Source: Psammoneis japonica (taxonomy: Eukaryota). Taken from it: 64,000 bases of DNA. A model generated the notes under the pieces. That model saw nothing but the letters and a program-made list of their open reading frames with translations, was not told where the DNA came from and ran no database searches. Positions 18,409 through 44,849 of the stretch are shown one piece after another. The stretch covers positions 124,001 through 188,000 of the forward strand of contig QPGO01000048.1 of assembly GCA_008632985.1 (NCBI GenBank), read 5' to 3'. The position numbers and the translations under genes were made by a program. Position 1 is the stretch's first letter. The number at the start of each line of letters is the position of its first letter.

Positions 18409-18620
18409 ATGTTGTTGTTGTTGTTGTTGTTGTTGNNNNNNNNNNNNNNNNNNNNNNNNNNNNNNNNNNNNNNNNNNNNNNNNNNNNNNNNNNNNNNNNN
18501 NNNNNNNNNNNNNNNNNNNNNNNNNNNNNNNNNNNNNNNNNNNNNNNNNNNNNNNNNNNNNNNNNNNNNNNNNNNNNNNNNNNNNNNNNNNNNNNNNNNN
18601 NNNNNNNNNNNNNNNNNNNN

Positions 18621-18663
<43 letters not shown>
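18409..18663. repeat. (TTG)n microsatellite spanning an assembly gap (N run 18436-18620)
   Basis: TTG repeats on both sides of the N run. Confidence 0.95.
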
Positions 18664-21600: not shown

Positions 21601-22626
21601 AGGGTTGTTGCTTCAAGCATTTGTTGCAGTGCTGCAAAATGCATCTTGCTGGGTGCCAAGCTCAGATGGAGGGACATGATTGCTGAGAAAAAAAAAGGCA
21701 CAAAAAAAGTGCCCTCTTCCTGTGTTGATGATCCTTGGGAAGGGTGGCAAGAAGCAGCCACTGGAAGAAATGGCACCAAAAGAAAGATTGCGATGGTGCT
21801 GTGCAGGAACAGAAAAACAAGATGAGTTGATTGGCTGGGTTGCAGAGAATTGCTGCAAAGCCAAGAGAAGCCAAGGTAGAAACCTTGCTGGTGCTGGCAG
21901 CAGCACAGCAGAGGCACACAGACCACACCAAACCACACTCCAGAAAAGAGGCCACTTGCTTTCTTGGATGCTGTGTCTTTGCACCACATCATGGCTGCCC
22001 AGACAATGATCAGCTGGTTGTCCAATGAACAAAAGGCTGGCTGCTGTTTTGCTCAACAACAAAGTCTTGCAGCAATCTCCCAGCACACAGCAAAAGGAAA
22101 GATGTGACCCAGTTGGCTTTGCTGCACCTCCCGGGGGGATGCTCTGGCTGTGTGCAGCAAGAGCTGCAAGGAGAGTGTCGTCAGCTGGTCTTGTTTTGAA
22201 GTTGTCTGGCTTTTCCAAGCCTTCTCTTGAACCCTTGAGCTGCCCCCCTCATCTTGTCTTTTGCCACTGTCCACACCTCTCTGCACCACAGGCCTGGCCA
22301 AAAATGTTTTCATGTGCCAACATCAAAGTCATTGTCAGCTTCATTCTCTCAGCCACTCCACACTGGCTGGCTGACTCTGGCTGGTGGCTTGTTTTGCACA
22401 GGCTCATGAAGCAGGCAAGATCTTCTTCTGAAAAAGTGCTGCTGTCTTTCTGCTCATTGCACTGCCCCCATTCTCAGCCTTTTCAAGGAAGAAACAAAGT
22501 TGAGTGCTGATGCACTCTTGTTGTCAGCTCAAAAGGTCAGGTGCCAGAGAGTGTCTTGTTGACTTGTTTTTGTGTTGCTCCATGTCACAAGAATGCAACT
22601 TTCCCATGTCTCCATTGCCATGATGC

Positions 22627-22627
<1 letters not shown>

Positions 22628-22665
<38 letters not shown>

Positions 22666-22667
22666 AC
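22628..22667. repeat. (CA)n microsatellite
   Basis: About 20 CA units. Confidence 0.95.
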
Positions 22668-23088
22668 CCTGCTTGTGGAAAAGCAGTTTAAACCACAATT
22701 TGGCAGCAGAAAAAAGCCTCGCAGCCCCTCGTCAACCCCTCATTGACAGCTCACGTGTTGAGATCTGTTCCTTGGTGGCATCTCTCCAATGAGAAACTGT
22801 TTTTCATCTTTGTTGATGATTTCTTTGGCTGAGACTTCGATTATCAGCTGCATTGTCCAATCTTCAGAGGTGCATTGTCAGAGGCAGTTTTTTCGTCGAT
22901 CGAACGGAAAGATGTTCTACTCGAGTACATGCGGTTCGAGACAACCGGAGCATTTTTTTGTCGTCTGCGCTGCGTCGTCCTGACAACAATCGGGCGGAAA
23001 CCAGACGGCGATTTCCAGATTGCTTGCGAATAGTACCGGCATGTATTACAGTGCCGGTACTCGATGGTTTATGTGCCTCCTGTAAACA

Positions 23089-24645
23089 ATGGCGGAATGC
23101 ATGCTGCAAAACTCGATTTCTAGCGACTGTTATGTCGGTATTGATGTTGGAACGCAAGGGACAAAGTGTGTTGCATATCATCCATTGCTTGGAGTCGTCG
23201 CTAGGGCGTCGTATGCATATGATTTGGCTGCCAATCCAGAAAACGTGAAAGGACGAGCAGAGCAGGACCCTGCAGTTTGGCTACTCGCGGTAAAGACTAG
23301 TCTCGGTCAGATTGCGGAGACTTTGGCTGCGAAGAAATTCGCTGTGGCTGGGGTAGGCGTTTCTGGTCAACAACATGGTATGGTGCCACTTTCTTCAGAT
23401 TTCCTTCCTCTTCGTCCGTGTAAACTGTGGTGCGACGTCGAAAGTGACCAGCAAGCACGTGAGTTCTCCTCGAAGGCATCCGATATCCTGAAACGATCCA
23501 TGTCTGTTCCAGCTGGATTTACAGCTCCGAAAATTCTTTGGTTAAAACAAAATGAACCCCTCATATATCATGAGACTCGGTGGTTTGTCTTGCCTCACGA
23601 TTTTGTTACGCTAAAGCTTGCCGGGAAATCATCCGGTGAGATACCCACTACCGATGCTGGAGATGCCAGTGGAACTGGGCTATGGGATGCGTCGTCCAGC
23701 ACATTTTTGCCTTGTCTGGCGGAGATTATCGATAGCGACCTCTATGCGAAGCTACCGAAAAGTTTGCCTCCAGGTTCCGTTGCTGGGTATCTCTCGTCAG
23801 CTTACAAATCACTTCTTGGGCAGGACAAAGCTGCAACAGTACCAATTTCTGTCGGGTCAGGAGACAACATGTGCAGTGCTTTGGGGGTGGGTTGTGTTGT
23901 TCCGGGTCGTGCAGTGCTTAGTCTGGGAACATCGGGCACGATTTTCGGTGTTTCATCAGCTCCGGTTGTTCCAGGTGAAACGGGGGTCGCTCCATTTCAG
24001 GACGCCACTGGTAAGCACCTGCCCTTAGTCTGTACGATGAGTTGCACTGGCGTGTTGCAGTATGTCTTGGATACATGGTGTGAGGGAATCTCACATGAAG
24101 AGGCTACCAACTTGGCGGAGGGCGTTGACGTGGGCTGTAACGGTGTCACTTTCCTTCCGTTCTTGGGAGGCGAAAGAACACCAAATTGGCCTCATGCCAC
24201 GGGAGCCTTGCTGGGCATGACTTCAAGCAATATTAGCAGGGAGAATCGTGTAGGCTTACTCTATAGGGCTGCTATGGAAGGTGTTACATTTGTTCTCGCT
24301 GACGCCCTGAAGGACCTTCAAAATGCATGCGGCAAGGGCTTTCATAATCTTGAAACGCTTTACGTTGTTGGTGGAGGCTCTCAGAACCCTTTGTGGCGTC
24401 AAATAATCTCTGATGTGCTTGGGGTAACGTTGAAGTTCCCGCTCGAGGCCGAAAGTGCGGCTCTCGGAGCGGCTTTTCAAGCTGGGGCGGCAGCGACGAA
24501 CACTCCCGTAGACAAGTACGTGTTGGAGCAAGAAATTCCGATGGAGGATGCTGTAGTCGTGCCAACCAACAGCCAGCAAGTTCAGGAGGCGTACAAAGAG
24601 GCACTTACGCGATACCACACCTGTTCAAGAAAACTGTTTCAGTAG
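23089..24645 (+). CDS. xylB: Xylulose kinase (FGGY carbohydrate kinase), intronless
   Basis: GIDVGTQGTK, GVSGQQHG, LWCD, FTAPKILWLK, GSGDNM, SLGTSG, FLPFLGGERTP and GGGSQN motifs. Confidence 0.9.
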   Translation: MAECMLQNSISSDCYVGIDVGTQGTKCVAYHPLLGVVARASYAYDLAANPENVKGRAEQDPAVWLLAVKTSLGQIAETLAAKKFAVAGVGVSGQQHGMVPLSSDFLPLRPCKLWCDVESDQQAREFSSKASDILKRSMSVPAGFTAPKILWLKQNEPLIYHETRWFVLPHDFVTLKLAGKSSGEIPTTDAGDASGTGLWDASSSTFLPCLAEIIDSDLYAKLPKSLPPGSVAGYLSSAYKSLLGQDKAATVPISVGSGDNMCSALGVGCVVPGRAVLSLGTSGTIFGVSSAPVVPGETGVAPFQDATGKHLPLVCTMSCTGVLQYVLDTWCEGISHEEATNLAEGVDVGCNGVTFLPFLGGERTPNWPHATGALLGMTSSNISRENRVGLLYRAAMEGVTFVLADALKDLQNACGKGFHNLETLYVVGGGSQNPLWRQIISDVLGVTLKFPLEAESAALGAAFQAGAAATNTPVDKYVLEQEIPMEDAVVVPTNSQQVQEAYKEALTRYHTCSRKLFQ

Positions 24646-26507: not shown

Positions 26508-26724
26508 CGCAGATCTTCCTTGGTCTACTCGCCACGCGGTCGCATGCCGTGCGCTGTTTTGAGCGAACATAACAGAGTATAAGTACTTGTATACGAAGAC
26601 GCATATGACGTCACACATAAAATGATCCCGCCCGCCCGCCCGCCCTCCCGTGCATACATCGTCTGTTGTCGTCCGCACACGCGCATTCGCACACTCTGCG
26701 CGCTCGAGAAAGACGATGCATGAA

Positions 26725-27255
26725 GTACCCTCTCTACTCTAGCTAGAGGTCTAGCTCTAGGGCCCTATCTACTCTCTACCTACTAGTAGCTAGACTACTA
26801 GTAGCTAGGGTTCCTACGGTACTCTAGCTACTCTCTAGCTAGCGCTAGCTAGAGTAGAGAGCTACTACTACTAGCTAGAGTAGAGAGTAGAGTCGTCTAC
26901 TCTGTTCAATGTTGTTGTAGGTCTCCTACTCCAGAGTAGAGAGTAGAGGCCTACCATACTGTATGATACACCGGTACCGGTAGTAGCTACTCTACTGTAT
27001 GTACTGTACAATGAGCTACTCTCTACCAGTATTAGAGAGAGCTCTCTCCATGTAGAGTCGTCCCTCTCTAGAGTAGAGAGAGAGAGTACTGTGCTCTCTC
27101 TACTATTCCTACCGGGTGAGAGAGCATAGCTTGGCACAAATATGGTAGAAGTAGTATGATGGCTCTCCTCTCTACTCGTAGTAGCTAGGAAGCAGTACTC
27201 TAGAAAGTAGGAGTAGCAATCTAGACTCTACTAGCTAAATGATTAGCTTACTGAG
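26725..27255. repeat. Low-complexity TAG/CTA/AGAG-rich intergenic tract
   Basis: Dense ctag, tagag, ctcta and tact words; TG/CA scarce. Confidence 0.8.
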
Positions 27256-27368
27256 AAACAATCAACATGCATTACTGAACATCAACAAGACTTCTACAGC
27301 AATCGTCTCGAACGTAATAAGGCGTCTAAGCCACGTTCAACTCAATGATTTCAGTTGAACTCTGGATT

Positions 27369-29893
27369 CTAAAGATCATCATCTTCGATATCATCATCTC
27401 CGTCATCATCTTCGTAAAAGAAGTAATTGCCGTTCTTCTTCTGCTCGGCATCCTTTTGCGATCCTTGCTTATTGATCCTGTGAGCGAGAAAGAAAGAGAA
27501 GCAAATTTGTCAGCCAGAATGTTCTCACACACGATCCAGAATAGATGAATTGTTCACCTAACCGTTGAATCGTCCGGTTAGAAATTAAAACTAAGACTTA
27601 GAAAGAATCTTTCAGTGCCGAACGCTAAAACAGCGCCCGAGGGTAACGAATACCACACGGAAACCAGCGTAAAGAATGTATTCTCGTCATCCCAGACAAC
27701 AACAAAACTCCAACGTTTGTGATTGTTACAATAACTCACCTTGGTCGAAAGTTTGTTGGGTCCCTTCTGAACGTCACCTCCAAGCTCTTCAGGAACTCAT
27801 TCATACCGGTTAAAAGCCCCTGCGGACTTGACGCCGTGGCCTCAATCCCGGGTTGACCGTGGTAAACGACTACGCGATCCGCAAGATAGGTAGCCATGAT
27901 AAAATCATGCTCCACAACAAAGGCTGTTTTCTTACTGTGCATAATGAAACGTTTGATCACCTTCGCGCAATTGATACGCTGTTCAGAATCCAAGTAGGCA
28001 CTGGGTTCATCAATGAGATAGACATCCGCAGGAGTGCCGAGTGCCAGAACAATAGCGAGACGTTGCAACTCCCCACCTGACAAGTTCTGAACTCCGTTGT
28101 CGATAATGTTGTCAATAACAAGAGGTTTCATCACGTCGGAGACGAACTGAGGGTGAACATACGAATCACGAACACGTTTGTGAAGAAGTTGCCGGACGGT
28201 GCCCTGAAACTTTGGGGAAATCTTCTGGGGCTTGTAACTAACATTAAGATCCGGAGCACCGGCATTAGCAGCCTCGTAGGTCAACCCCTCTTCTTCAAAT
28301 TTGACTTGTTCGTCGCTTTTAAGGAGTCCTGCTAGCATTCGAACGAAAGTGGTTTTGCCGGTACCATTCTCCCCCAAAAGAACAATGATTTCAGAATCAG
28401 TGAATGACCCCTCTTCTATATGAAGTTTGAAGGAAGAGCCTTCCCTCGTCTGTGTCTTTGTCATTGAGGGATAAGAGTACCGCTTCATCTCGTCGTTCTT
28501 CACCTCCACGCCTTCAGCACGCTCGGAAACCTACGTTGAGCAAAACAAGACAGCATTAGAGGAAGGAGCATCAGCGTGCGCTTTTGGCCAGATCTTGCTT
28601 TCTCATACCTTGAACGAGAGAGCGTCCTGGCGGAATCTCAAGTTCTCCGTTGGGATAAATCCCGCCAGAAAAGCGTTGATACCCATACGGACACTGAACG
28701 GCATCGTGACGACACCGTACGCACCAGGAGTGCCATAGAGTACGCAAACATAATCACTTAGGTAGTCTAGGACAGCCAAGTCGTGCTCCACCACAAGTAC
28801 ATAGCGCCCGTATCCGTGGTCGCCATCGAGTAGCTGACGGATCATATGGGCCGCCGTAAGACGTTGCTTGACGTCGAGGTAGGATGACGGTTCATCAAAC
28901 ATGTAAACGTCGCTGCTCTGAACGGCAACAGCAGCAATAGCGAACCGCTGCAATTCACCACCAGACAAAACGCGGACATCACGTTGCAACAGATGGTTTA
29001 ACTCTGCCTCAGACGTGGCCCAGCTTAAAACATCCCAGTTTTCCGATTCGGTCCTCTGCGTGAAAGGCAATACGGAAAGGTTGAGACTACAAATGAAATA
29101 CGCCGATTGAACGGCCTTCCTTTCACAAAAACGAGTCTGGAACGCACCTCGTCCTTGCTCTTGAGAATATCCAGAACTTTTCCTTTGACTGCGCGGGGGA
29201 TATGGTCAACGTATTGCGGCTTAATTGTAGCTTTCATTGTGTCCTCTAGAATCTTCGTAAAGTAATTCTGCAGTTCCGAGCCGCGAAAGTACACCAAGAT
29301 CTCTTCCCAGTCGGGTTGATTTTCGTACCTCCCTAGATTCGGCTTCATCTTCCCAGCAAGAATCTTTAGTGCGGTGGACTTGCCAATACCGTTGGTCCCC
29401 ACGAGACCCAGTACCTGCCCTGGGCGAGGCATGGGCAAACGATGAAGCTTGAAGGAATTAGGGCCGTATCGGTGGGTTGTGTTACGTTCCAAGTCCTTTG
29501 GTAGGTTGATAATGCTGATGGCATCAAATGGGCACTTTTTCACACAGATACCGCATCCTATTGATTTACAGTGTGACAGTCGTTATATTGAATGTATAAG
29601 AGGTTGGACGCAAAAGCACGAGAACAAGCGTGACGGCACGGTACCGTGAAGCTCACTCCGCCCACTACACACTCACCAATACAGAGAGGCTCGGAAATAA
29701 AAGCAAGCTTGCTTTTAGGACCGACTTCTATGCAAAGTTTACCCAATTTAACAACTGGACAGCTCTTCTTGCATTCTTGGCGACACTTCTTCGGCTTACA
29801 CCGCTCCGCTTCCACAATCGCAATACGAGTCAGAGAGGATTCTCCGTCACCGCTGCCGCCAGCTGCTTTACCACCTTTCTTCTTCGGTGGCAT
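27369..29893 (-). CDS. ABCE1: ABCE1/RLI1 ribosome recycling ATPase, multi-exon
   Basis: Fe-S N-terminus [15 protein letters not shown], two ABC cassettes ([25 protein letters not shown]), and [11 protein letters not shown] spliced through a 262-bp intron (27478-27739) to [14 protein letters not shown]. Confidence 0.97.
27612..27690 (-). ncRNA. Candidate intronic box C/D snoRNA
   Basis: Box C-like ATGACGA (27690-27684) and box D CTGA (27615-27612) span 79 nt inside the unusually long last ABCE1 intron. Confidence 0.35.
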
Positions 29894-30357
29894 TTTCGCT
29901 TTCTCCTTCCTTTTACTATATGAAAGTGCTATCAATACCCGCTCGATGTTGTACGACCCGTCTCGAACAACAAACCTTTCAAGCACACAGCACACTTTCC
30001 AACTTTCAACTTGCTTCTTCGGAACCTTCGAACCTTCGAACTTCGTGATTTCTTGTGTCAGTCACCACTTACTAAAAACTAGGATCATTTATTTATCCAT
30101 TTATGTTAATGTTTATATTCATCGTACATCTCGGTACATTTTCTACACAATGCGAAATTAACATCCGCTCGTCCGTCATCCCTTCTTCACTGTACAGTAT
30201 GATACTCGAGTACGTACAGTATGTAGCCTACCGTACGACGACTCTCCATTTTGCACGGAAGAGAACAGACGGATTTTCTCCAAAGTGGGATGCGCGGAAG
30301 ATTTGAGCCAAACTTGTTCACCTGCGCACAGTTGTGACCAAGTTGCCGCACCCGACG

Positions 30358-32790
30358 ATGATGAATTCCTCACCCGTTCCCTCACTCTCAGGGACATTAC
30401 GGGTCGAGGAACTTGCAAAACTTCTCAAAGTCCCTGTTGGAGCAATTTTATGTGTTGAAATAGATGAATCAAAGCCTTGCGGGGTTGACAATTGCTGCTT
30501 GCCGTCAGCACGGCGAAACACACAAGGCGGACACAACAATGGACCCCGGTGCTTGTTTCATCGACAGTCATGGTTTCCAGTTGCCCCCAATGGCAAAGGC
30601 CATTTTCTTCTTGGTCCACAGTGCATGAGACCCGAAGACGCAAAAGGAAGGAAAACTTGCACACGCGACAACACTTTCTGTCATGGAATGGGGCGTTCAT
30701 CTCATGTGGTGCGCGTGCCGAAGAATTTGTCGCAACTGTCACAAGCGCTCTTGGAGTCAAACCTGAGCACTGAGAGAAAGTTTTGAATGATCCACGCAGT
30801 CAGGTGATTGCACCGTGGCACTTTCATCCTGAACATCGGCATTGTGACGAGTCGAACAAGTGCTGGCGCCTGAATCCGCACAACAGCGATGCAACATTCC
30901 GGGATTGGGAAAAGAAAAAGTGGGTTGGCTTTCCCCCCCCAAACTACAAAGTTGAGTTGCACAAAGAGATGGAAGAGCAAAGACGTGAGGTGCGGCCCCA
31001 AGAGCGATGGAAAGTGTCTTCCGGCATTGCATCAGACTCACCAGAGTGGTTTGGGCCACTTCTGACTGCACAGAGACGCGCCAAGAGGAACATGAAGACG
31101 AATGTTCCCGGCAGCAATGCTTCAAGGGGTGAAATTTCCAATCCTTTAAATGATGTCACCAATGCCCCGAGAACAGCCAGGTCAAGTGCAACAAAGTTGG
31201 TCACTCCAGATGCTGGCACCCCGCACTCCAACACAAGCATGCCGGCAGAGAAGCGTGCCGTGGTCATGACAGCTCGAGCTCAGAGTTTCAATGAAGAATT
31301 GGAGGACAAAAAGTTGGAGGTGGAGCACTTGAATAAAATGGTGGAGCAACTGAAGAAAAAGCTGTCTGACAAAGACAATGAAATGGGAGAGCTCCGTGTC
31401 AGAGCAGACAAGCAAGGGAAAACAATGGAGACATCAAAGACTCGGATTTCTGAATTGGAGTCCGAGCCAGAATGCGCCCGTGGTGAGCTGGTCGAGCTGT
31501 CTCAGCAAGCACCTCTGTCATGCAAGGACCTTGCACCCGGTGGTCACCTGGCAGATGCAAACAGTGCGCGCACCTTTTTCCCCGATTTTGAAGCTGGCGA
31601 GCGCTTCTTGGAAGTGCTGAACTGGAAAGACGGCGGCAATCCGGGTCTTGCAGAAGGACTGCGGCGTTGCAGCAAGGTTGGTCCAGGTGAACGCAAGGGT
31701 GATGTTGAGCCACCTGCTGCACACTCAACTGAACCAGAGCAACGGGTCGTCGATTGGAAAACGGAGCATTCATTTTCTGTCTTTGCTGTCATGTCGGATT
31801 AACTCAGGAAGCAATCGCCCCACTTGTTGGGATCAAAGCTGCTTCCATGGTTTCAGATGTCGTTCGGCAGTGGGCTGTTTTTCTGGACCGGTCGTTGACA
31901 CTGTGGTTTCGACTCCAAGCCGGAGCACATGTTGCGAGCGCATTCCGGCTAGATTTGTTCGGGCCTTTGGGCATGCTTCTATTTTCCTTGTTCTTGATGC
32001 CACAGAGGAGGAGGCACAGATGTCCTGCATGAAGACGGGGCATGCCACCATGCATTCTGAGTGCAAGGGCAGGGACACAATGAAGTTCTTTGGTGGCTCT
32101 GACCCCACTGGATGCACACATGAAGGCTCTCTGCCGAAAGATGGAGCGGCTGGCAGTTGTGGGGATTCAATCGGCACCGACATTTTCAAACTAATTGAAA
32201 ATGTGCCATTCGGGCATGCAGTCCAGGTTGACAAGGGGTTTCTCATTGATGATCTGTGTGCGTTGCTGGGAGTCGCGTGTGTCCGCCCCACGAAGAAACT
32301 GAAGCTACAGACTCAGCAGTCAAGCGAGGACACGGCTCCATGTCAGAAGATTGGGAATGCGAGAATTGTCATCGAACAGGTTAACGGGCATGCAAAGATG
32401 ACGGGTGGATGCTTCAACAGTGTCATCCCATTGCTTCAGCTGGACCTTGCTCCGTTTTGTTGATGCGGATTTGTTTTCTGATGCAGAACTTTCATCCTGC
32501 CATCATCCATGGGCAGTCGACGCATTGCGTCGATGGAAAACGTAGAGAACGTCCCTGCCGAGCAGAGATTCGCTGGTGTGGTGCTGCAGATGATGGTTTG
32601 GCAGATGTGTGTGGACAGGTTCACCTTTGGGGCACAGCGAGTGAGCGCAAGAGGTTTGCGGAGCTGGCAGAACAAGAGCCGGAAAAGTCGTTGGTCGATG
32701 TTGGTGAGATGGCACTTCGTGAAGACTGGCCTCGGAAACTCCGAGAGGAGCACAACAAATGCACTGGAACTGACAACTGGCTGTGTGACA
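30358..32790 (+). pseudogene. Transposase: THAP-like zinc finger, coiled coil, HTH_Tnp_4 and DDE_Tnp_4; frameshifted
   Basis: VLDATE, HSECKGRDTMKF (degenerate YSxYKxxxTxK), VQVDKGF, QQSSEDT...IGNARIVIEQVNG; GLTQEAIAPLVGI HTH; N-terminal C..C..RVP..WHF. Confidence 0.8.
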
Positions 32791-32799
32791 ACCCCCAGC

Positions 32800-35104
32800 A
32801 GTTGTGTCTGTGGAATGTGCTCAACCATTTGCAGTTAGTCCGGCTTTTCCATTGCGTCGTTCTGAGATGCTTGAATGGAGCTTGCACTGCTGGGTTGTCC
32901 TCAGAAAAACGCTTCCGATCCAGCATTCGTTGATGGCATGCATCATCGCCATGCATTTCACAATGAGGCCCGACACCCAAGTTGATGTTTCTCCATGTGT
33001 CCTTTGAGGCACATCTCTGAGCTTCCTCTTCTGTCTTTGGAGCTCGGCGGAATTGCATTTCTGAAAGTCCCTGAGTTCGCCATGCCGGCATTGTTGATTT
33101 CCTGCAATCCAGCAACATTTGTCCATCGCAACAGGCTTGGGAGTGCTTCTCTCTTCACCCCAATGATGGTGCTGGGTGTAGAGTGCACAGCAACGGTGTG
33201 TGCATTGACCAAAACCAGCAGTGCACGAAGCACAACAGCTGTCAATCACTCCAACAATGCGCCCAAGATTGTGCCCATCTTTTGCGAAGGCAGTCGGCTT
33301 AACTTGCAAGACCATGAAAACAAGATGCGGACAGAGCTCTTTTCGCTCACCTTTCTCTACCCTCTCTTTCTGATTCTTGTTCATAGATGCAAACTGTTTT
33401 GACAGCACACACAGTTTTGTCTTATCGTCCGAGAATGCAACAGTGTGAAGCTTCAATTCTCGGTGATCAAGAACCCGTTGGAGCGCCGTCCCGATGGTCT
33501 TCTGGCGCTTGCTTTCACCTGCACAGCCACAGCACTTGTGAACAAAGGAATCGCAAGCTCAGGGCTCTCAATTGCAATGTCCTCAAACTTGGCAAGAAAC
33601 CCTGGAGTAAAGATCAGCACGTCTTCATCTCAAATTTCAATTTCGCGTGTTCGGGTCTCTGAAAGAAATCCGCCGTCATGAGATTCTCCAGCAGTTCGTG
33701 AATTTTCACTCACGGGTCTCCAGTGTCAATGGCAAAGAAGGAACCCAATGTGCCTTTGTCCCGATTGAAAGCTTGTGCCAGATGAGGTTCCTCTGCCTCA
33801 AGAGAGACAAAGCCTTTTGTGCACTTTGTCAAATCGTCTTTTCGGAGCTTGTCCCCGCACTCGGAAGTGGTGTTGGCTCCACGAGCACTCAAGAAGCTCT
33901 TTAACTGTACAACATTGCATTGCTCTGGTTTGTCATTTGCAAGACAGCACCCAGCTACCTCAGTCTTAGAAAGCCATGATTTGTGCAGGTGGTTGTGCGG
34001 GTTGAAAGAAGATGGATTCTTGGAATCATTTTCAGAGAGCTCGCCACGAGGCGCAACTTCTCCCGCGGCATGTTTCCTTGTCACGACCGTGCTCGGCATC
34101 ACCAGTTTTCCATCAAGTTGCCTGACATTGCATTTAGAATCACAACAAAGGGCCCTTTCAGAAAAGCATTCAGTCACAACAGCGACATGCGCGGAAACCC
34201 TGTCCAACGTCCACGTGTCATCGAGCTTGTTGCTTCGAAGTGTGCATTCCACCACTTGTCGCAAACACAAAGACGTCTTTGACAAGTGATTGATGCTTGC
34301 TGATTGATTGACATTCAATTCTGGAGGGTTGCTGGATTCCTCGTTGATGAGTGCATTGAAAATTTCTAGAGCTGTCTTCTCACCAACACCCGGAAGACCG
34401 GATTGATCGGGCGTGCCATCACACCCACAAAGAGCGCCAAAGATCTGAAAGACTGAGTGACCAAAGGAACGGCAAGCATGAGGAAGTACAGCCATTTTGC
34501 TGCCTTCTGACAAAGCTCTTTCCATGCTGTCACTCTCCATGTCAAAGAAGCGGACACTCTCAGTGTGATGGGAGTCGACAATCAGCACTTTCTTGTGCCC
34601 GAACGCAAGCATGTCGGAGTCGCCAGAAATGACAACTTCTGTTCGATCCCCAGCAACAGGATGGTGCCAGAGCTGCAAGTCTGCCTCCTCTGGTGCAATG
34701 ATGGAAGACACCATGAATGAGTTGCAAACCTTCTTGGCCACAAGAATGCAAAGAGGTTCATTTCGCATCAAGTTGTTCCTCTCGTCGGAGGTGGAGTTCG
34801 TGTTGTCTCTTCTGGCACGTTCATGCCTCTTCCATTCAGAGTCCCTTCCATCAAAAGCAACAAAGAGCTTATCACCAAGATCACACATTCTGGCGAGATA
34901 ATTCAACATTAAAGAAAAGTCCCGCAAGGAAGGCCCGCAGTCTCCATTTGTGCGTGCACGCCTGTGTTGTCGGGCACACATGTGCAAAAGTCCGGCAACG
35001 TCAAAGCCAATCACTTTTCCTTGAAGACCAAGCTCATGGCTTGTCTTGAGAAAGTCATTGAACCTTCTGCATGGTGGGAGGGGTAGCAAACCGTGAATTC
35101 CCAT
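32800..35104 (-). pseudogene. Exo1/XPG-family 5' nuclease + SAP + SWIM zinc-finger fusion (transposon accessory gene), disrupted
   Basis: MGIHGLLP start, IGFDVAGLLH, VAFDG, APEEADLQL, VISGDSDML, CGCDG..LPGVGEKTA (H3TH); SAP-like CNVVQLKSFLSARG; SWIM CASCTAGFGQCTH. Confidence 0.8.
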
Positions 35105-35215
35105 CGCGACGCAAATTGTTCTCGCCTGATGATGACTGAAGTGTCTTGCAGCGTTTGAGGCCAAAATCTTCCGCGCATCCCACTTCGTCTGGCCATCTTC
35201 CGTGCAAAATGGTCT

Positions 35216-35314
35216 ATGACAGAGAGAGAGAGAGCTACCGTAGCTACTATAGTACCTGGTAGTAGAGAGCTTTGTAGAGCTCTCTAGAGAGTAGCTACTC
35301 TCTACTCTCTAGCT

Positions 35315-35345
<31 letters not shown>

Positions 35346-35560
35346 CTGAAGCCTTACCCTACTACTACTGGAATCTCCCTCTACTAGAGAGTAGGGCCCT
35401 CTCTATCTAGAGTAGCTTAGTAGCACCGACCGTGCGTAGTAGCGGCTGCCCACTTACTCAACCGTACTGTACGGTGTGGTAGAGTGCAGATACGATGATG
35501 GCTAAACCTCTCTACAACAGGATCCTAGTAGAGGGCCCTAGAGCCCTAGAGTCACTCATG
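35216..35560. repeat. TAG/CTA/(AG)n-rich low-complexity tract
   Basis: Same word composition as 26725-27255, including (AG)n runs. Confidence 0.8.
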
Positions 35561-35567
35561 AGGGCGC

Positions 35568-36388
35568 CTACTTGTTTTTTAGGTAAATGCTCCAGTTTAA
35601 GGCGCTTGCCACGAACACCCACCCACATGTTGGTAGCAAAAGCTTTCCGGCATTCTCATCAATTCCCCAGAACAATGCAGTGCTTGTCATTAAAAGCCCA
35701 AAGAAGATGCTGATGACAAAAGCTCCCCGGCCAGGACATTGCAATTCAAAAAACACTTTGTTCCACGCATCTCCCAATGCTAGGTGTCCGCAATAGACAG
35801 CCAATGCCTTCCAATGTTTGTTGTTTTCATCTTTAATGATACGCCTTAGCGCCAGCAGCTGTGTAGGTTTGGAAACGATGAGCCACATAATTGGGAAAAC
35901 CCATCCAGGTGGGTTCCATGCCGGCTTGAGAAGGTTCTCGTACCAATCTGGATCGCCAGGGAGTTCTGATGGGTCTAGAACTTGATTTGTTGCCACGGAC
36001 AATCCTCCATCCACAAGGCTGCCAAAGAAACTTGACGCAAAAATCACAGAAATACATGCGAGCCACTGCGGGAGTTGCAGTCCACCGATGGATTTCATGT
36101 CCAGCTTTGACGACAAATAGTTACCTCCAGATAGCACCCCAAGCAAAGCACCCGCTTCTGCTAGTGCACTGGTAGCAATTTTCAAGAAAAGCACCGGATC
36201 AGAGTCGCTGCAGGATCCTCCCCAATAGTGGTGATAGACACGCGAGAGACATCCTCTTGTTTGATATCCAGCACTCGGTTCAAGAAACTGGCCGCGGTGC
36301 GCTTTCTTAGAATAGTGGGTTCAACCGAAACTGCAACCATCGAAGCGCACGAGGCAATCGTTACAAGGAATAGAAGTACTACTCTCAT
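35568..36388 (-). CDS. TspO/MBR family protein with signal peptide; one apparent 1-nt frameshift near 36222
   Basis: WYENLLKPAWNPPGWVFPIMW, WNKVFF, LLLPTCGWVFVASALN. The upstream ORF 36182..36388 joins through (R)GGSCSDSDPVLF if one base is restored. Confidence 0.8.
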
Positions 36389-36893
36389 GGTGAGACATCG
36401 GGATGCCAGATCTACCGTTCGCTGATTATTTGTTGCCTCAAGTTGTCAACCCCGGCACCGATGATGTCGTGATGTTTTCGGTCAAGTGCCAAGTGCGTCA
36501 GCTTGGAAGCTGTCGAGCGCGACGGAGGAGGATATGTAGGAGGAGGAGTCAGTCGAGTCGGCCGGGCGGCGGCTGACAGAATAGAAATAGGAGCCGCGCC
36601 CCCGCTTCAGCCAGAGCGAAGAGCAAGGTAGTAGGTAGGCCTAGGAGCCCGCGTCCGTAGCCTTCTATCGTCTGTAACCTTACTGTATGTCTCGCAAGAT
36701 CTTCATTGAGTGACTTTGCCTCGTCCAAAACTCGGAATGCACTTTATACTGTAGAGTGCGGTTGACGAAGTTTGAGTCTGAGATCAAACGGTGCGAAAAT
36801 GCCTGAGCAACATGCCAGACGCCTTCGTCCAATGACAAAACCATAAAATTGTGCGGCAGGATTTGCCCAATTTATTCCGGGTAAACCTTAAAC

Positions 36894-38355
36894 CTAAACA
36901 ACGCTGTGTCCAGATGCTGAGCTGGGCGGTGCCTCTTCACACTTGTCAAGTTTCGTCAGCTCGTTTTCTTCGCATTCTTCGTTTAGAGGTGAGCTTGAGA
37001 CAAAATGAGACGAGCCGACATCAGCTTGTAGAATCTAATTGCGTCGAAAGATAGAAGCAAGGTCAATCGATCAGACACATCATGATACAACTAGCAAGGA
37101 TACAGATTCTTCGATGGCTGTACCTTGTTCAATTCCATTTTCGAGTAGTAGGACGCCACAGCAACACCCACAACGGCGAATGTGACGCCAAAGACGAGAG
37201 TGAGAACTCGGACAGTTTTGTTCTCTGAACTCTGTGCCGTGCTATCCGAAAGACTTGAGGCAGTTGCTCCGATGAAGGTAAACATAATAACTCCAGGAAG
37301 CATTGCAAATAATGCCAGAGCATACGCCCACAATGGGATGGAAGTTACACCACTCATATAATCAAGAGCATTGTAAGGAATCAACGGAGAAAGGCGCAAA
37401 AGAATCATTATTTTCAGGCCGTTACCCTGGAGTGCTTCGAAAATGTTTTCAGGGAACATTGAGGCAAGGATACATCATCGTCGGAAGAAAATGCAAACGG
37501 TGGAGACAATGATACCCGGCGCACAACAACTCACCTCGATCGACTGCCTGAAAAACCGGATACTTTGATGCCAAACTCACCACACAATCTCGAAACAGGT
37601 ATCTGTTTCCAAATAAGCACACGGGGTGAGAAACAGAACATCAATGCTTCTAGTAGAGGAGATGCACCGATTTCGTACCTTCCGAGCAGAAAGGCGCAAA
37701 TTGAACCGCAGCTCGCGCCAAAAAATACTGCCTGTAGATATCGGAACAGTTGATATGTGAGATGAGATCCTTATTAGAATTTGGTAAAAAAAAACTCAGG
37801 TTCCTTGTCCTCTCTCACCGTTGATGCAAGAACAATTCCCTGAGCAACGCTATCAAAAGCTTTCCCAAAGGCAAAGCCTGTCCCGATAGTAATGACTGCG
37901 CCAGGAACAAAAAGTACTGCAATCAAGCAGCGTGAGAGATAGAGCGCATAAGATCAGTCAGAAAGTCCTTTCACTCCTCTTTGATCACGCATTAAGAACT
38001 AACATGCGTATCGACCACTTTGCAACAAGTACTCACTTGTAGCCAACGTATAAATGACAATCACGGCTAGAACTCCCAACAACGGGTTCCGTTGGACCCA
38101 CTCTAGAAATGCAAGACTGGCCTTCTCTATAATCTTATTGGTGAAGGAGTCAATCACAATAAAAATTAATGACAACCCCAAAAAGAGTCCAACGGCTATT
38201 CGCACGCGTCGCGATCTTGCAGCATCGAATCTTGCGTTCGGCACCATGCGTGTTCCATCATCAACAAGAATGCCAGTGTTTGGCGATGACAAATAATCGT
38301 CTTCCTGTGTACTGCCAGCGCCGTAACTCATGTTTCCTGCGCTATTCAATGGCAT
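36894..38355 (-). CDS. TVP38/TMEM64 (DedA/VTT, SNARE-associated Golgi) membrane protein, multi-exon
   Basis: GLKIMILLRLSPLIPYNALDYMSG, MLPGVIMFTFIG, N-terminal TM helices, FVPG motif in an internal exon. Confidence 0.8.
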
Positions 38356-38519
38356 GGTTGATCGTTGCCATGAACAGGTAAATACGTTGCGCACCGAAGG
38401 AGAAGTGAGACAATCTGAAATCGAGAACTTGTCGAGAAAAGAGAAAAATGGCGCCGCGTCGTACTCAGTACATTTAGCGGACGACAGAGCTCGTAAGGAC
38501 CACAACTTTCTTTCATAGC

Positions 38520-38640
38520 AATAGAGGTTCCTAGCCCTACTGTACCTACTCTCTACTCTAGAGAGTAGAGCTAGCTACTAGTAGATTCTCGCGTACTGTA
38601 CATACAAGTACAGTAGAGAGACTATCAGAGAGCGTAGTCA
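38520..38640. repeat. TAG/CTA-rich tract
   Basis: ctctactctagagagtagagctagctactagtag. Confidence 0.7.
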
Positions 38641-38658
38641 CGCCTTTAGTTTAACTTT

Positions 38659-40597
38659 TCAAACCTTTGCACCGATACGACCGTACCTCTTCTCCCACTC
38701 TTCGATAGTTCCTGGATCAAGTTGCTTCATCTTCTGCATCAACAACGTTTCAACTTCCCTGGCTGATGACCGTTCATTCTGGTCTTGTCGATGACATCGA
38801 ACCATTGCTTCTTTTAATACCATGTCGACGGGATCCGTGCTGTTCCATTTTTCGGGATCTACTGGCGGGCGTCTTCCCGCCATAACTTCCTCTGCGGCAT
38901 CATGATCGGTCATATCTTCGAAGGGCCAAAGCTTTGTAAGGAGCATGTAGAAGACATTGCTGTAAAAAGGAAGAGAAGGCAAAACAGAATGGCAAAAAAC
39001 AAAGGTTAAAACAAATCTGCGTTTACTTCTCAGAAGCCTCTGTAGAGGTTCCATTCTCTCTCGGTTGAATATTGGAATGTGTTGCGTGGCACCTACCCTA
39101 GCGAGTATACATCGACCTGCAAATCGATTCAGCAGACGAAACAGTGCTGCAAGTCAGTCACCGGCAACAGTAGTAGTGGGGACAGAACATAAAGGACGAA
39201 ACAAATCTACGTACCTTCTCTGACTGACTCTCGTAGAGGTATTCCTCAGGACTTCGATTGCTACCTGGGTTCCTCCCCACTCTATAGCCACACGGCTCAT
39301 CCTTGTGTCTTGACCATCTTATGAATCTCGCCCGGTTGAAATCGTTAAGTTTGAACCACCCATCAATAAGAATATATTGTCCTGGAGTAATATCTGTACA
39401 AGTCACAAAGACAAAACAATAAAATTGATGAATATCAAAGCAACGTTGTATCAAGACGTGATGGAAATTCACTTACCCGTGTGAGCAATTGATGCTTGGC
39501 CCTCCTTATCAATGTTGTGTGCTTCTGCGAGGCCAATGGCAGCTTGAGTCGCTACAGTCGTTGGCCATGAAGGGAAAGCATAGGAAAAATAGTGAGTATC
39601 CAAAGTTCAATGAGCATTTGTCAAAGAGAACAAGAAGAGAATGCAAAAAGGATATTGAGTATATGTGAGATCCAAGCTTTAATTTTTGTCAAAGCATCGA
39701 AACGCCAAATCGGGATCGCTTACCAATGCGCAACTTTTCAACTTGCGACAGCTCATGCGGATGTTCTCCTTCTGGCCAGATTGCATCGTTGATATCCCCT
39801 TCAGAACTGTACTCAAAGATACCAGAGTTTCCGCAAAAGCCGTAGATGTTGACAACAAAGGGGCTTGAACTTAGCCGTTCCATAGCCAGTGCATCGCGTC
39901 TGTGGCGATCATAGTTTCTAGTAACGTAGTCATGAGTATATCGCATAGTCTTTAGCACACGCTTTGTGTCGGACAAGTCCTCTCGAACCATCCAGACATC
40001 GCGCCAATATCCATTTGAAATGAGACGAACTCTCTCATCTTTTTTCGCCTCGGCATGCAAGTTCGTCAAGTCGTACTCGTACACAGTATTACAGGACGGG
40101 TATGAGGTCAATTGCCAATCATACTGTGCCCTGCAATCTTTTGTTTCAAATTCATCTCCATGGCCCCTTCTGTATTCTTTTGAATTTTTTAATCTCTTCT
40201 GTGCGTCTAAAGAGTCCTCGTGTCGTTGGATTTGTCGTTTGGACGGGTATCGCTCCAAGTTCACATCTATTTTGCGTACCACCGGGACGTGGTCGTCACC
40301 CTCATCATAAAACGTGACGCATTGGGGAAACGCTTTATATGTTACAGGCCGTCGTAAATGGCGCATCGACAAGCTTCCCGTTGAAAGAAATATCCAGATT
40401 ATTACGAAAACGCCCCCGCCAACGACTAGAAGCGCCTGGTCAGGTCGCGACCGAGCACGAAGAAGCAGCCGTCGAGTCCACAACTCATATCCATCAAAAG
40501 CGGTTTTAGCATGCGAATTTACTTTCGCATGTGGAACCACCGAAGGTAAACGCTGTTCTTTGCGATTCCGCGGACTAGTGACAGCTCGACTGCTCAT
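38659..40597 (-). CDS. Type II membrane-anchored atypical protein kinase (PKDCC/VLK-like architecture), multi-exon
   Basis: Single N-terminal TM helix; ISNGYWRDVW, VLKT, VVNIYGFCG, HTDI, KLNDFN, RSPEEY, KVDVYSLG. Confidence 0.75.
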
Positions 40598-41039
40598 GGC
40601 ACTTGTGGCTGTTGTTCAAGAAGTGTAGCAATGATTTTCATTTTTTGTCTGCAGGCGTTGAGCGTTGAGGGCATTATTTCTCCATGTTGAATGTCGGTGC
40701 CACGCATGCATGGCGCCAGCGACAATTCCAACATGCACACAGCCGCGCCAATGCGCGAGTACCGGTACCGGTAAGGGGAGGCAATGATCCAACCTCATCT
40801 CACACGATGACCCGGGTAGGACCTTCAACTAACTACTGCTAGAGATGCAATAACGGAAAACGAGCGAGCAAAAGGAAGAAATCTGCGGCACACATCGTAA
40901 AAATAGATCATGCAACTATTGAATAATAATTTTGCCAACATTACTTCAGAGCAAAATCCATTGGGCATCCCCAACACGCGACCAGGAGAACTGCGTTCTG
41001 TGGTGAACAAGGATCTCGTTAACCTGCTCAAGATAAAAT

Positions 41040-42419
41040 CTAAGTAAAGACTCCTCCGGTGTCTTCCTCAGGACTGACAGTGCGTTTACTCTTTGACTTA
41101 GAACGACTCTTGGACGACCTTCGGCTCTTGCCTTCGTCTCTGGGACTGCGACCGCCACTGCGGTTACGGCTAGAACTTCGACCTTCACCACGATGGCGGC
41201 TCTTGCTTCGGCTCTTACTCTTCCTCCTCGACTGCCGATATTTGCGTTGCATGAGGGCTCTACGTCTCCGTCTGTTTGTGAACAGAATACCTGTAAACAT
41301 GACAAAGGAAGCCAGAAGAAGGAGACACCCAGCGCCGTACTTGACCTTGGAGGCCCAGGACTGTGCGGCAGTAGCATGCAACCAGCCGGACTTGGAACCC
41401 TTTACTAGGTTCGATGCAGCACCACTGCGGCGACTCGTCAGCGCGTCATCGTCCTGGCAAAGAGGAGAATCAAGGGACGAGCAGCTGGTAGCATATGGTA
41501 CCAGCTGCTGCGCAAGGTAAGTATTACCATTGTCGTTGTAGACGTTTCCGCACTTTTTGTAGTGCTTCAGTAAGCTGTTGAGACTACTCAGAGCGTCGTA
41601 AGTGCCCGAGCTCGAAAGACAGTACTGGTCATTGAAGGTATCAATAGTAAAGGTTCCATCGCTAGCGCAGCCAACTCCCATATACCCATTATCTCCACCA
41701 CAGATAGGAAGATCATCTACGCCATAGCCACCATAACCATCATCATCCCCAAGTCTTCGACCACCGTCACCGTATGCGTTGTAGCCATCGTCATTCCCTC
41801 CGCCGCCACCAAAGGGATTGTTGGTATCATACTGCTTGAGATAGTATAGGAATTCACCCAGGCCATACTTGGTCACAAACTGCGGGAGAGCGAGGAACGA
41901 ATCCAAAGGTAAGAGACGCTAAGAAAAACAAAAATTATGGAAAAACCATGATGCATCACTCACGGTTTCTTTGTACGAACTACTGCTACAACTGACACTT
42001 TTTCCGCTGTCAGATGCATATATGGAGAAGGCAACTTGCGCCCTCTTGCAGTTGGACATTTGGTACCAGTAAGTTGTTCCATCGTCACTGTCTTGTTCCA
42101 TGCACCCCGAGTCTTCGTCTTCAGGATCAACCACAGACCATACACAGCCTTCGATCTTGAGCGACATTGCCGACGCATCATACAGCCAATCTCGGTCGAA
42201 GGAGTCCCCATACATTGAAGGATCTCCATCGCTAGACCCCCAAGACCACCCTGCTTCTGCTGGCACAGCAAATGACAAAAAGGCCAGTATTGCGACGCCG
42301 CATAAAACAAGGGGAGGACTGTTGCGTCTGCGCCGAAAAGCACGAGGCGGTGTACGATGATCAGTGAATTCGAGATCGTCACAGCATTCTGTTTCCAAAG
42401 ACAACGGTTTACACGCCAT
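41040..42419 (-). CDS. Silicanin-like single-pass membrane protein; intron ~41880-41962
   Basis: Signal-like hydrophobic segment, SLKIEGC, RRL site, Asn/Asp/Gly/Tyr-rich lumenal part, YMGVGCASDG..IDTFNDQYC, C-terminal TM and Arg/Ser/Lys tail. Confidence 0.6.
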
Positions 42420-43974
42420 GATGTAGCTATTTCAACTCTGTATCGGGTACTGTTTACTCCTGTTAAAGCATTAGTTCCATGGATAGAACAGAAGATTCAG
42501 CTGATGCTCACAACAACAACTCGTCTTTTTTGGCAGGTTGCAAGTTGCGCACTCGCTCGTCTTTGTTTTGGGGGAGTGTGTCCGCCGTCTTCGGAAATTT
42601 TACCGGCACGTTTTTTGTGTGTATGCGTGTCGCTTTTTCAGAATATTTCAGATATTCATTCATTAATGATAAAAATATCTTAACAGATGCATGATGCTGA
42701 TATTCTACTCTTGTATATATATTATGGAAACTTAAACAAAAATGTATGATCAATAGGACGAAACGAAGGACTTGTCATCCTAAAAGCTGTAGGATCTAAT
42801 ACATCATGCAGTATCTGCTTTGCACACATTCAATACAATGACAGTTGGACTTTTAAAATAAATTCTAAGAGATGAAGTAAATACTGTAGTCTCGTGATTC
42901 AGTGTGGCGAGGCCCAACAAGTCGGTTGTTGCGCGTGTGGCGTGCCGGTTTTCAGGCCTGCAAGACATTCAATGTTCTTTTGATTTCTCCTTGTTTGGGT
43001 GGCATGCAGCAGTTTCCATCTCATGAGCAAATGTGCTGCCGATGCCCTCAACAACCAGCACAAATGGCAGCGAAGATTTTTCAGCACCTTGCCCAAGCTG
43101 TGCCAGATGCCAGACAGGCGCGTTCTTTCTGCACACTGTGCTCGCAAGCTGCACATTCTCATGCACCAGCTCTCCAGAGGAAACAGAAAAAGGTGCTGTC
43201 AGAGTTCAGCCAGGAGACAGAAGCCCCAAGATCTTCTTGTCAGCACCGCCAGATTTTCTTCTGCACTTTTTTGGTCTTTGTCTGCCACAGAGAAAGGCAA
43301 AGAAGGTGTGCCTGGAGACAAAAAAACTTTGCACTTCTTCTCCACACCTGCTTCTTTCCAGCTGTGACAGAATCTTTCAAGATGTGTGCACTTGCAGCTT
43401 CCCATTTGACTCAAGTTTGGCAGAGGTGGGAGGGGGACTTTGAGTTGTTGGAAAGTGAGCCACTCCCACACAAGCTCATTTGGGGGGAAGAGCTGCGCCA
43501 GCTTCACATGAGTCTTTTTTCTTTCACATGCACCCGCGCTTCTCAACTTCATTCATGCATGAAGGCTGTGGCACAATGACAGCAGCAGCAAAAAATTCTG
43601 GCATGCACTGATTTTGGATTTTTTGTCAAGTTGTTGAAAAAACAACAACCCCCATTTCTTGTCCACCATGGCACTCCTGTTGCACAAGCAGCGCGACTCA
43701 TGTTTGCAGCTGGACAGGGAGCCAAAACATTGCTTTCCCAGCTTGCAAAGGCTCTCTGTTTTTTTGGCACACATGCACAATCATCCAAGCACCAGCAGAC
43801 TTTGTGAACTTTCTTGTTGAAAACTTTGCACCAGCTGTCAACACCCAAGTGAGGTTGAAAATGAAAACAGTGGCAAGAGGATGTTCCAAACAAGCTTGCC
43901 AAACATGCTTGCAACTGGGGCAGTGACAGAGTGCCACCAGCGGCAAGAGCAACAAGCCAAATGGCTCCCACAGA

Positions 43975-44600: not shown

Positions 44601-44849
44601 ACAATTTCTCCACAAAGTCTCCAATGTCAGCAGGGCACATGTGTGCCAATCCACCAAGTCTTCAACAAAAAATTTCAATGGCAGTTCCCAAAAAATCTTG
44701 CAGATCAATGGAGTCTTGAACCAAAGAATGATTTTGTCAATCAACAAAAAATCAAAATTGAAGTCTGGCAAGTCACAATGTCACTAATCTCATCATCCAG
44801 CAAAATGGGGCAGGATGGAAATTCACCATGATGCACAATGCATTGAATG

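Follow-up and report, generated by a model that had tools for sequence, protein, structure and literature searches.

A probable footprint of TpA-specific transition hypermutation in a transposon and other mobile or foreign DNA of a diatom

In fungi, repeat-induced point mutation (RIP) is tied to duplication, to the sexual stage and to a DNMT-like enzyme. APOBEC3 and ADAR act on complementary DNA (cDNA) or double-stranded RNA (dsRNA) and leave strand-asymmetric footprints, and the natural target of the ADAT2/TadA deaminases, A34, has a conserved U33 before it and, in tRNA-Arg, a pyrimidine after it (U-A-C). As described in the accessible text of a 2026 preprint, RIP changes C to T at CpA and raises TpA (bioRxiv 10.64898/2026.01.13.699255). 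The same text documents the closest described system, that of the chlorarachniophyte Bigelowiella natans, in which 231 of the 302 nuclear mutations of 15 mutation-accumulation lines fell in giant-virus and virophage regions, and of these 231 viral-insert mutations 230 changed A to G or T to C, in every case at TpA, with a single GC>AT change (bioRxiv 10.64898/2026.01.13.699255). Here we describe a 64,000-nt stretch of the genome of Psammoneis japonica (contig QPGO01000048.1, positions 124,001 to 188,000; hereafter the window), in which a PIF/Harbinger-type DNA transposon and three further blocks have lost nearly all of their TpA. It is likely that the diatom host subjects mobile or foreign DNA to a TpA-specific transition hypermutation, in which A:T becomes G:C and TpA is turned into TpG or CpA.

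In B. natans, the TpA mutation rates given in the accessible text were near 6e-7, with some lines lying between about 1e-7 and 1e-6 per site per generation; the genome holds 124 TpA-poor, CpA- and TpG-rich clusters, the TpA-poor coding sequences are enriched in DDE and reverse transcriptase (RT) domains, and an ADAT2 homologue was put forward as the candidate enzyme (bioRxiv 10.64898/2026.01.13.699255). In work cited by the same preprint, ADAT2-type enzymes are said to act as deaminases on A as well as on C in DNA (bioRxiv 10.64898/2026.01.13.699255). The available part of the preprint's main text makes no mention of CpG, trinucleotide, context, diatoms or stramenopiles (bioRxiv 10.64898/2026.01.13.699255). 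In diatoms, transposable elements (TEs) are CG-methylated through DNMT5a, according to the accessible part of another report (PMC9998398). In the literature covered, from which most subscription journals were missing, no report was found in which diatom repeats are depleted of TpA or hypermutated at it, in which TpA and CpG loss are coupled, or in which a 3'-neighbour preference is described.

The observed/expected ratios (rho) of TA and CG were computed in 2-kb and 500-bp windows, and the edges of the blocks were taken from the list of all TA positions. Four sharp-edged TA-depleted blocks, with rho_TA of 0.03–0.10, stand in host DNA (36,506 nt between the blocks) with rho_TA 0.66 and rho_CG 0.97. 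Block 1 (10637-22840, 12.2 kb) holds unclassified repeats and has rho_TA 0.03, rho_CG 0.07, rho_TG 1.93 and rho_CA 1.90. Block 2 (~30235-35214), which is the transposon, shows the same TA loss with much of its CG retained (rho_TA 0.10, rho_CG 0.69, rho_TG 1.46, rho_CA 1.49). Block 3 (42888-52634, 9.7 kb; rho_TA 0.03, rho_CG 0.16, rho_TG 1.78, rho_CA 1.83) contains internal duplicates, and block 4 (63425-64000; rho_TA 0.03, rho_CG 0.26, rho_TG 1.69, rho_CA 2.03) continues past the end of the window. Within the transposon proper (30246-35212), 31 TA are present, as against about 200 expected at the host rho of 0.66 for its own base composition (z about -12), and 219 CG as against about 309. Both strands are equally affected, with TG and CA numbering 456 and 459. 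The TpA process is thus element-wide, stops at the ends of the element and is near completion. The dinucleotide scan over the window bears out the original prediction, made from the letters of the sequence, that TA is rare and CG still common in this element and that the adjacent host genes are normal.

The missing dinucleotides can be accounted for almost completely. Relative to host DNA, the deficit of TA+CG per 100 nt is 9.42 in block 1, 4.97 in block 2, 8.91 in block 3 and 8.26 in block 4, and the corresponding excess of TG+CA is 9.81, 4.33, 8.36 and 8.83. The sum of the pyrimidine-purine (YR) steps is unchanged, with 23.5-24.7 in the blocks and 24.1 in the host. Since the deficit is matched by the excess and the YR total is constant, TA and CG were converted by transitions. 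The GC content of the transposon follows the same bookkeeping, as the shift of +3.83 - 1.14 points predicts 50.6% and 50.7% is observed. Moreover, the duplicates within blocks 1 and 3 differ mostly by adjacent TG<->CA double mismatches, as would be expected if a single palindromic TA or CG decays on the one strand or the other independently. For instance, the pair 44269-44604 and 43947-44277 shows 11 TG<->CA doubles and 6 TA/CG singles, which make up 28 of the 53 mismatched bases, and 46972-47112 is 93.6% identical to 44267-44407 in the purine/pyrimidine alphabet and 80.5% identical in nucleotides. Tandem and dispersed repeats in the TA-free blocks (15780-16711, 43856-44633 and 46962-47117) have a purine/pyrimidine identity of 82-94% and a nucleotide identity of 66-80%; the E-values of BLAST in the two-letter alphabet are uncalibrated, and the analysis kept to the highest-ranking tandem or duplicate pairs.

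A metagenome search with the transposase protein alone returned no close relatives, and a query built from a six-sequence alignment found 12 loci encoding related transposases (34-70% protein identity, too distant for a nucleotide substitution spectrum). Their rho_TA is 0.55-0.83, none being TA-poor, and the family is therefore not intrinsically poor in TA. Their rho_CG ranges from 0.35 to 1.08. The lowest value belongs to locus L001, a contig of 7,085 nt with a normal rho_TA of 0.55; here, in another organism, CpG was lost and TpA kept.

The consequence for the proteins is a loss of tyrosine. The four TE open reading frames (ORFs) contain 0.5% Tyr, 4.1% His and 4.6% Cys, and six host ORFs contain 2.9%, 2.5% and 2.1%, respectively. 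The 484-aa nuclease ORF of the transposon has a single Tyr, as had been claimed, together with 22 His and 21 Cys, and its frame has His opposite the Tyr of the EXO1 motif QLAYLN. The transposase frame was aligned with 28 homologues, and a consensus was drawn from the 26 that have a normal Tyr content. At the conserved Y-S-x-Y-K the transposon reads H145-S-E-C148-K, which agrees with the predicted replacement; Tyr occupies column 148 in 26 of the 26 homologues and column 145 in 14 of 26 (54%). In the five alignment columns that have Tyr in at least 40% of these homologues, the residues of the window are I, H, C, A and C. Two Tyr-poor environmental relatives read C..Y and H..H at the two Y-S-x-Y codons, and the near-identical partner of one of them retains Tyr where both that relative and the window have Cys. 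Evidently, the combined losses inactivate coding by turning Tyr codons into His or Cys codons, and the CGN codons for Arg decay later. The frames stay open because almost no stop codons are created.

Most transposase homologues contain 2-4% Tyr, and 10 of the 125 with at least 120 aa contain less than 1% (P0241, P0242, P0262, P0281, P0284, P0293, P0297, P0304, P0323 and P0365; median 2.5%). Nearly all of these come from environmental assemblies. The one named sequence, a 122-aa "low quality" protein of Thalassiosira exigua, is a lead only, and judging from these proteins the same erosion of Tyr may occur in other diatoms.

These observations bear on the idea that TA (and CG) is shunned by the elements as an adaptation, or that they stem from a TA-poor donor. 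TA is indeed under-represented in many genomes, including that of the host with its rho of 0.66. Nevertheless, selection or inherited composition is a very improbable explanation here: the depletion covers all frames as well as the non-coding parts, invariant Tyr codons were destroyed, the loss of TA and CG is balanced by the gain of TG and CA, duplicates differ by TG<->CA doubles, and the relatives have normal TA.

The limits of block 2 were resolved at the base-pair scale by the structure of the transposon (30246..35212, 4,967 bp), which has terminal inverted repeats (TIRs), a 3-bp target-site duplication (TSD) and a DDE_Tnp_4 transposase remnant, and whose TIR ends match the edges of the TA desert. 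The left TIR (30246..30309, plus strand) pairs with the right TIR (35159..35212, minus strand): 30246-30262 is complementary to 35196-35212 at 17 of 17 positions, and the second arm pair, of 27 nt, joins 30283-30309 to 35159-35185 with 93% complementarity. The TIRs are about 60 bp overall and their alignment has an 11-nt indel. The duplication TCT stands at 30243..30245 on the left and at 35213-35215 on the right, in direct reading, with a chance expectation of 1/64. It differs from TWA, which is the usual target duplication of PIF/Harbinger elements. The nearest TAs in the flanks are at 30234, 12 bp outside the left end, and at 35215, 3 bp outside the right end, and the outermost internal TAs are at 30398 (152 bp inside) and 35084 (128 bp inside). 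A TA-rich intergenic block at 35216-35560, which adjoins the transposon directly, is not mutated and serves as a negative control; the other TA-rich intergenic blocks of the window are likewise untouched. The process had been predicted to be repeat-restricted. Its confinement to mobile or foreign DNA stands, whereas a restriction in the sense of RIP is not supported: the CTAG/TAGAGAG repeats 3 bp away are untouched.

All four blocks have rho_TA of at most 0.10, whereas rho_CG spans 0.07-0.69, and no block is depleted in CG with its TA kept. TA loss is the faster process and CG loss the slower, in line with the predicted precedence of TA loss when this is read as an order of rates. In block 2, TA survives at 0.15 and CG at 0.71 of the host level, which corresponds to losses of about 85% and about 30% and, assuming a common start and a host-like initial composition, to a TA:CG ratio of loss rates of about 5.5. 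This means that a second, roughly five-fold slower loss turns CpG into TpG or CpA in the same blocks.

The TAs that remain reveal a context preference. Among 71 surviving TAs, 34 have a 5' T and 31 a 3' A (20% each in the host), and 15 lie in TTAA (4.3% in the host). The per-strand loss rates k were fitted as 0.59 for TAA, 1.42 for TAG, 1.88 for TAC and 2.30 for TAT. This per-strand T-A-N model describes the 16 tetranucleotide classes well (chi-squared 4.7 on 12 degrees of freedom) and is preferred to a context-free one with a likelihood-ratio p of 3e-12; block 2 alone gives the same order of contexts. The fit yields an edited-strand preference of T-A-Y > T-A-G > T-A-A, in a model that is symmetric and treats A and T as equivalent chemical targets. 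For CG, loss in block 2 is greater at ACG/TCG than at GCG/CCG (p=0.001), a comparison that rests on an assumed ancestral composition.

Both losses could stem from a single element-targeted deaminase activity that works quickly on the A of TpA and slowly on the C of CpG, so that the CpG loss would not be ordinary decay of 5-methylcytosine (5mC). The TA-free and CG-poor tracts do have common edges, but element-confined methylation would yield identical shared edges. The rho_CG of 0.07 lies far under the 0.35-1.08 of the relatives' loci, and the context dependence of CG loss in the transposon also fits an enzyme, as does the reported ability of ADAT2-type enzymes to deaminate A as well as C in DNA; the context model for CG, however, depends on the assumed ancestral composition. 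We regard this explanation as unlikely, because the two losses are clearly uncoupled in rate and because 230 of the 231 hypermutations in B. natans were at A:T, with one GC>AT.

Read-derived contigs were used to look at the window in other data. The public run X1 contains 67% of the words sampled from the stretch, and its contigs were placed on 27000-46000 at a minimum identity of 90%; of 276 differing places 40 were listed, and 272 were tallied by type. Transitions make up 234 of these 272 differences (A>G 50, T>C 51, C>T 61, G>A 72). The word depth is about 58 for single-copy host DNA, and on the transposon a summed depth of 105-237 is reached by many short contigs (2-4 copy-equivalents); therefore, other copies at 90% identity or more exist. 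The 21 listed differences in the transposon comprise three places where the window has TA and the contig TG or CA, four that form two TG<->CA doubles, eight with CG in the window and TG or CA in the contig, three of the reverse kind and three outside these contexts.

One X1 contig of 8.7 kb, at single-copy depth, runs from host DNA (35353) 1.1 kb into block 3. Its 12 listed differences are divided equally, with six in the 1.1 kb of block 3 and six in 7.5 kb of host DNA (binomial p ~0.002), and the six within block 3 comprise two CG>CA changes, one CA/TG double and two others. This excess of listed differences inside the block, 6-7-fold, speaks for ongoing change in situ and makes an artefact of the assembly less likely. 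TA is absent from the first 600 bp of block 3, which stand at single-copy depth, as seen by a method that is blind to copies below 90% identity. TG and CA succeed one another along the blocks as randomly as they do in the host (runs-test z -1.85 to +1.42 in the blocks, -1.86 to +1.0 in the host), and no strand-coordinated clusters of TG or CA were found in the blocks above host level.

A technical origin, in which the pattern came from base-calling, from polishing or from a modified base misread as a transition, would find some ground in how extreme the pattern is and in the scaffolded assembly with its run of N. It is nevertheless scarcely credible. A strand-discordant modification would leave long runs of all TG or all CA, or mixtures of TA and CG, but TG and CA are interleaved as in the host. 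Read-derived contigs match the sequence at single-copy depth over a block edge, the edges coincide with the TIRs and the TSD, and Tyr-poor relatives are present in unrelated data sets. Taken together, the mass balance, the replacement of Tyr by His or Cys, the TG<->CA doubles and the TA<->TG/CA differences between copies uphold the original proposal of a distinct A:T>G:C process at TpA.

A different question is when the transposon was mutated. It might have been changed before or during transposition, as an excised or replicating intermediate or as a master copy, and then inserted in a TA-poor state, its mobilisation in trans being possible because TA is by chance missing from its TIRs. In keeping with this, the depletion ends 12 bp and 3 bp from the TIR ends with no leakage into the TA-rich flanks, the TIR arms agree at all TG/CA sites, and the 2-4 copy-equivalents in X1 include many contigs that are at least 95% alike. 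On the other hand, some TA<->TG/CA and TG<->CA differences do separate the copies, the orthologous contig into block 3 carries its 6-7-fold excess of differences, including the CA/TG double, inside the block, and the process in B. natans acts in situ on integrated DNA. Moreover, mutation before insertion shifts only the timing, and a TpA-specific process is still needed. We therefore consider it improbable as an alternative to hypermutation of mobile or foreign DNA within the host.

Several points nevertheless weigh against hypermutation by the host. Much of the TA loss of the transposon could predate this insertion, and the right edge, with an intact TA 3 bp away, is explained no less well by mutation of the element as a molecule than by targeting in situ. 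The TIR arms show no TG<->CA discordance, in a segment where only about 2 TA sites are expected. The substitution spectrum is unpolarised, and the context model presumes that the elements began with host-like tetranucleotide frequencies. X1 may derive from the same sample as the assembly and is then not independent support. Deamination of 5mC as the cause of the CpG loss is an assumption, and no enzyme candidate came from the host, in which no search for deaminases was made. Finally, a mutation-accumulation study of P. tricornutum found CG to be the most mutable context with a GC>AT bias, and its accessible text mentions no hypermutation.

A mechanism can be proposed for the hypermutation on these grounds. 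TpA would be changed to TpG or CpA by an A:T to G:C transition at the A of either strand. The enzymatic step may be deamination of adenine to inosine in DNA by an ADAT2/TadA-like deaminase, an assignment by analogy that we put forward tentatively, at somewhat less than even weight. Because the edge is sharp to 3 bp, targeting would be by sequence identity or by small RNA and not by spreading chromatin. For the slower component, the methylation of CG in diatom TEs through DNMT5a offers an ordinary cause, and deamination of 5mC in methylated, silenced elements would be the simplest account of the CpG loss.

The transposon itself carries three frames of note. The transposase remnant (31621..32463, plus strand; DDE_Tnp_4, Pfam E=6.6e-7, 29.5 bits against a cut-off of 24.8) has no Tyr in 280 aa and 275 homologues at E<=1e-3 among 1.84 billion representatives searched, including THAOC_10592 of Thalassiosira oceanica. 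The 484-aa ORF (33710..35164, minus strand) resembles EXO1/XPG nucleases of the Rad2 family: residues 45-196 match the nuclease domain of human EXO1 in the PDB with E=5.5e-5, the Pfam scores for XPG_I (21.3 bits) and XPG_N (17.1 bits) are each under the cut-off, and a word-indexed search returned no homologue at E<=1e-3. The second ORF of PIF/Harbinger elements usually encodes a Myb/SANT-like DNA-binding protein. Pfam detected no such ORF in the transposon, in which the second ORF is EXO1/XPG-like. The nuclease ORF occupies the place of the Myb-like one, which is unusual for an element of this type. The third, a 342-aa open frame (30774..31802, plus strand), has weak coiled-coil-type Pfam matches, all below their cut-offs, and is expected to be open regardless of gene status, as the loss of TA removes TAA and TAG. 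No further copies of the transposon were found inside the window at E<=0.01 by tblastn with six ORFs of the element.

Blocks 1 and 3 proved difficult to classify. Nucleotide and purine/pyrimidine searches revealed no long terminal repeats or TIRs in either of them. A Pfam scan of 57 ORFs of block 1 gave nothing beyond two sub-threshold matches. A weak XPG_I match in this block was considered, and BLASTP showed no relation to the nuclease ORF of the transposon. Block 1 also contains an assembly gap, with 185 N at 18436-18620 followed directly by a (TTG)14 run (18436-18663), and may for this reason consist of two joined pieces. In block 3, the scan of 41 ORFs of at least 100 aa (42.8-52.7 kb) matched no family. 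A copia remnant had been predicted near 46310, reading ALHGLEQ in place of ALYGLKQ. The motif ALHGLEQ is present, on the minus strand at 46323, but no Pfam family, copia RT included, was matched there at E<=1, and neither RVT_2 nor rve domains were found by Pfam in this frame or in the 41 block 3 ORFs.

The host genes around the blocks are unremarkable in composition. The exons of an ABCE1 gene (27739..30061, minus strand) have a normal TA and Tyr content, an exon of a TspO/MBR-domain gene lies at 35568..36320 (minus strand; E=1e-28), and a single-exon ORF for xylulokinase at 23086-24642 has diatoms as its best named relatives (Seminavis with 54%, then Chaetoceros, Leptocylindrus, Cylindrotheca and Thalassiosira; best match overall 71% identity). 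An exon of ABCE1 has at least 120 matches at 80-89% identity, with the exception of one at 55% (Oryza punctata), the other named ones being diatoms and Triparma, of the sister group. By protein similarity the host is a diatom. The protein collection contains no identical sequence, although an annotated proteome of B. natans should be in it, which sets the host apart from B. natans. A second public set of contigs, X2, labelled "DNA?", joins across gaps of 76-262 nt bounded by CT..AC at 27476-29676 and 37034-37679, in host genes on the minus strand, and bridges the introns of ABCE1. On that strand CT..AC gaps are GT..AG introns, and X2 behaves like a transcript assembly. It gives zero cover on 30170-35241 and 42850-46000, and no RNA data set was listed as containing the stretch; no claim about expression is made from either result.

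The TA-rich intergenic blocks, partly palindromic, lie at 26720-27110, 35216-35560, 38540-38620 and 54020-54047. They are made of CTAG, TAGAGAG/CTCTCTA and TAGCTAC words with (GA)n, and the 500-bp bin at 26501 contains 58 TA. X1 contigs jump among these blocks, which look like a genome-wide family of intergenic motifs.

Programmed A:T>G:C editing has hardly ever been described as a natural process in genomic DNA, and the only report found is the 2026 preprint on B. natans, which has no confirmed enzyme. The diatom footprint, saturated and cut at the transposon ends, suggests that the process is widespread in the SAR supergroup (Stramenopila, Alveolata and Rhizaria). Diatoms are tractable, with CRISPR tools in some species and several genomes sequenced, and setting species that carry the footprint beside those that lack it could identify the deaminase and the targeting machinery. 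The T-A-Y preference points to ADAT/TadA-like chemistry and is a testable clue. For annotation, TA-free blocks retain long spurious ORFs through the lack of TAA and TAG, defeat homology searches and distort the repeat-based dating of TEs; the order of loss, TA first and CG later, could in turn date silenced insertions. A bolder and doubtful extension is that an ancient defence by DNA editing, addressed to elements, is common to diatoms and chlorarachniophytes. One ADAT2/TadA-like deaminase activity would then act on both of the self-complementary YR steps, on A in T-A-Y fast and on C in W-C-G slowly. If this were true, invading DNA would be driven free of TA and CG with its frames open, every Tyr codon and then many Arg codons being destroyed.

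Among the known systems, that of B. natans (Mettrop et al.) is the nearest. In both, TpA>TpG/CpA transitions hit mobile or foreign DNA within local boundaries and spare the host genes, TpA-poor clusters rich in CpA and TpG result, and DDE-transposase domains are among the targets. The differences are also clear. B. natans belongs to the Rhizaria, whereas the host here is a diatom (Stramenopila). The depletion is near-complete, with rho 0.03-0.10 as compared with 0.45 in the B. natans region of nucleocytoplasmic large DNA viruses, and its limits are set at the base-pair scale by transposon ends. B. natans shows essentially no G:C>A:T change, whereas CpG is lost here to TpG/CpA (rho_CG 0.07-0.69), which may be a separate process. 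De novo events were observed in B. natans, whereas the diatom case is known from its footprint alone.

The resemblance to fungal RIP lies in a transition hypermutation with a dinucleotide context, which ruins repeated or mobile DNA, spares adjacent genes and can saturate. The polarity is opposite, with TpA falling to rho 0.03-0.10 and CpA and TpG rising to 1.5-1.9, and short TA-rich repeats 3 bp from the transposon are untouched here. RIP is triggered by duplication; the transposon reaches a summed contig depth above that of single-copy DNA, and the TA-free start of block 3 lies at single-copy depth. The idea of a RIP-like system of opposite polarity therefore holds in so far as TpA is erased and CpA/TpG raised, but it is no longer unprecedented since the signature of B. 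natans was published. Decay of silenced TEs by deamination of 5mC likewise brings an element-restricted loss of CpG to TpG/CpA and fits the slower component; unlike it, the process here also removes TpA, and a rho_CG of 0.07 is unusually deep. Editing by APOBEC3 or ADAR is, similarly, a context-dependent hypermutation of the deaminase type that serves as a defence, and ADAR favours a 5' U. Those enzymes work on cDNA or dsRNA with strand asymmetry, whereas the present target is a DNA transposon with TIRs and a TSD, in which TG and CA are balanced (456 vs 459) and strand runs are absent. The ADAT2/TadA deaminases and the TadA-derived base editors offer a likeness in sequence context only, U-A-C resembling T-A-Y. 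The window thus adds another lineage, the second, to a process whose first description dates from 2026, and what is new is the diatom host, the transposon-exact limits, the saturation, the coupling to CpG loss and the 3'-neighbour preference.

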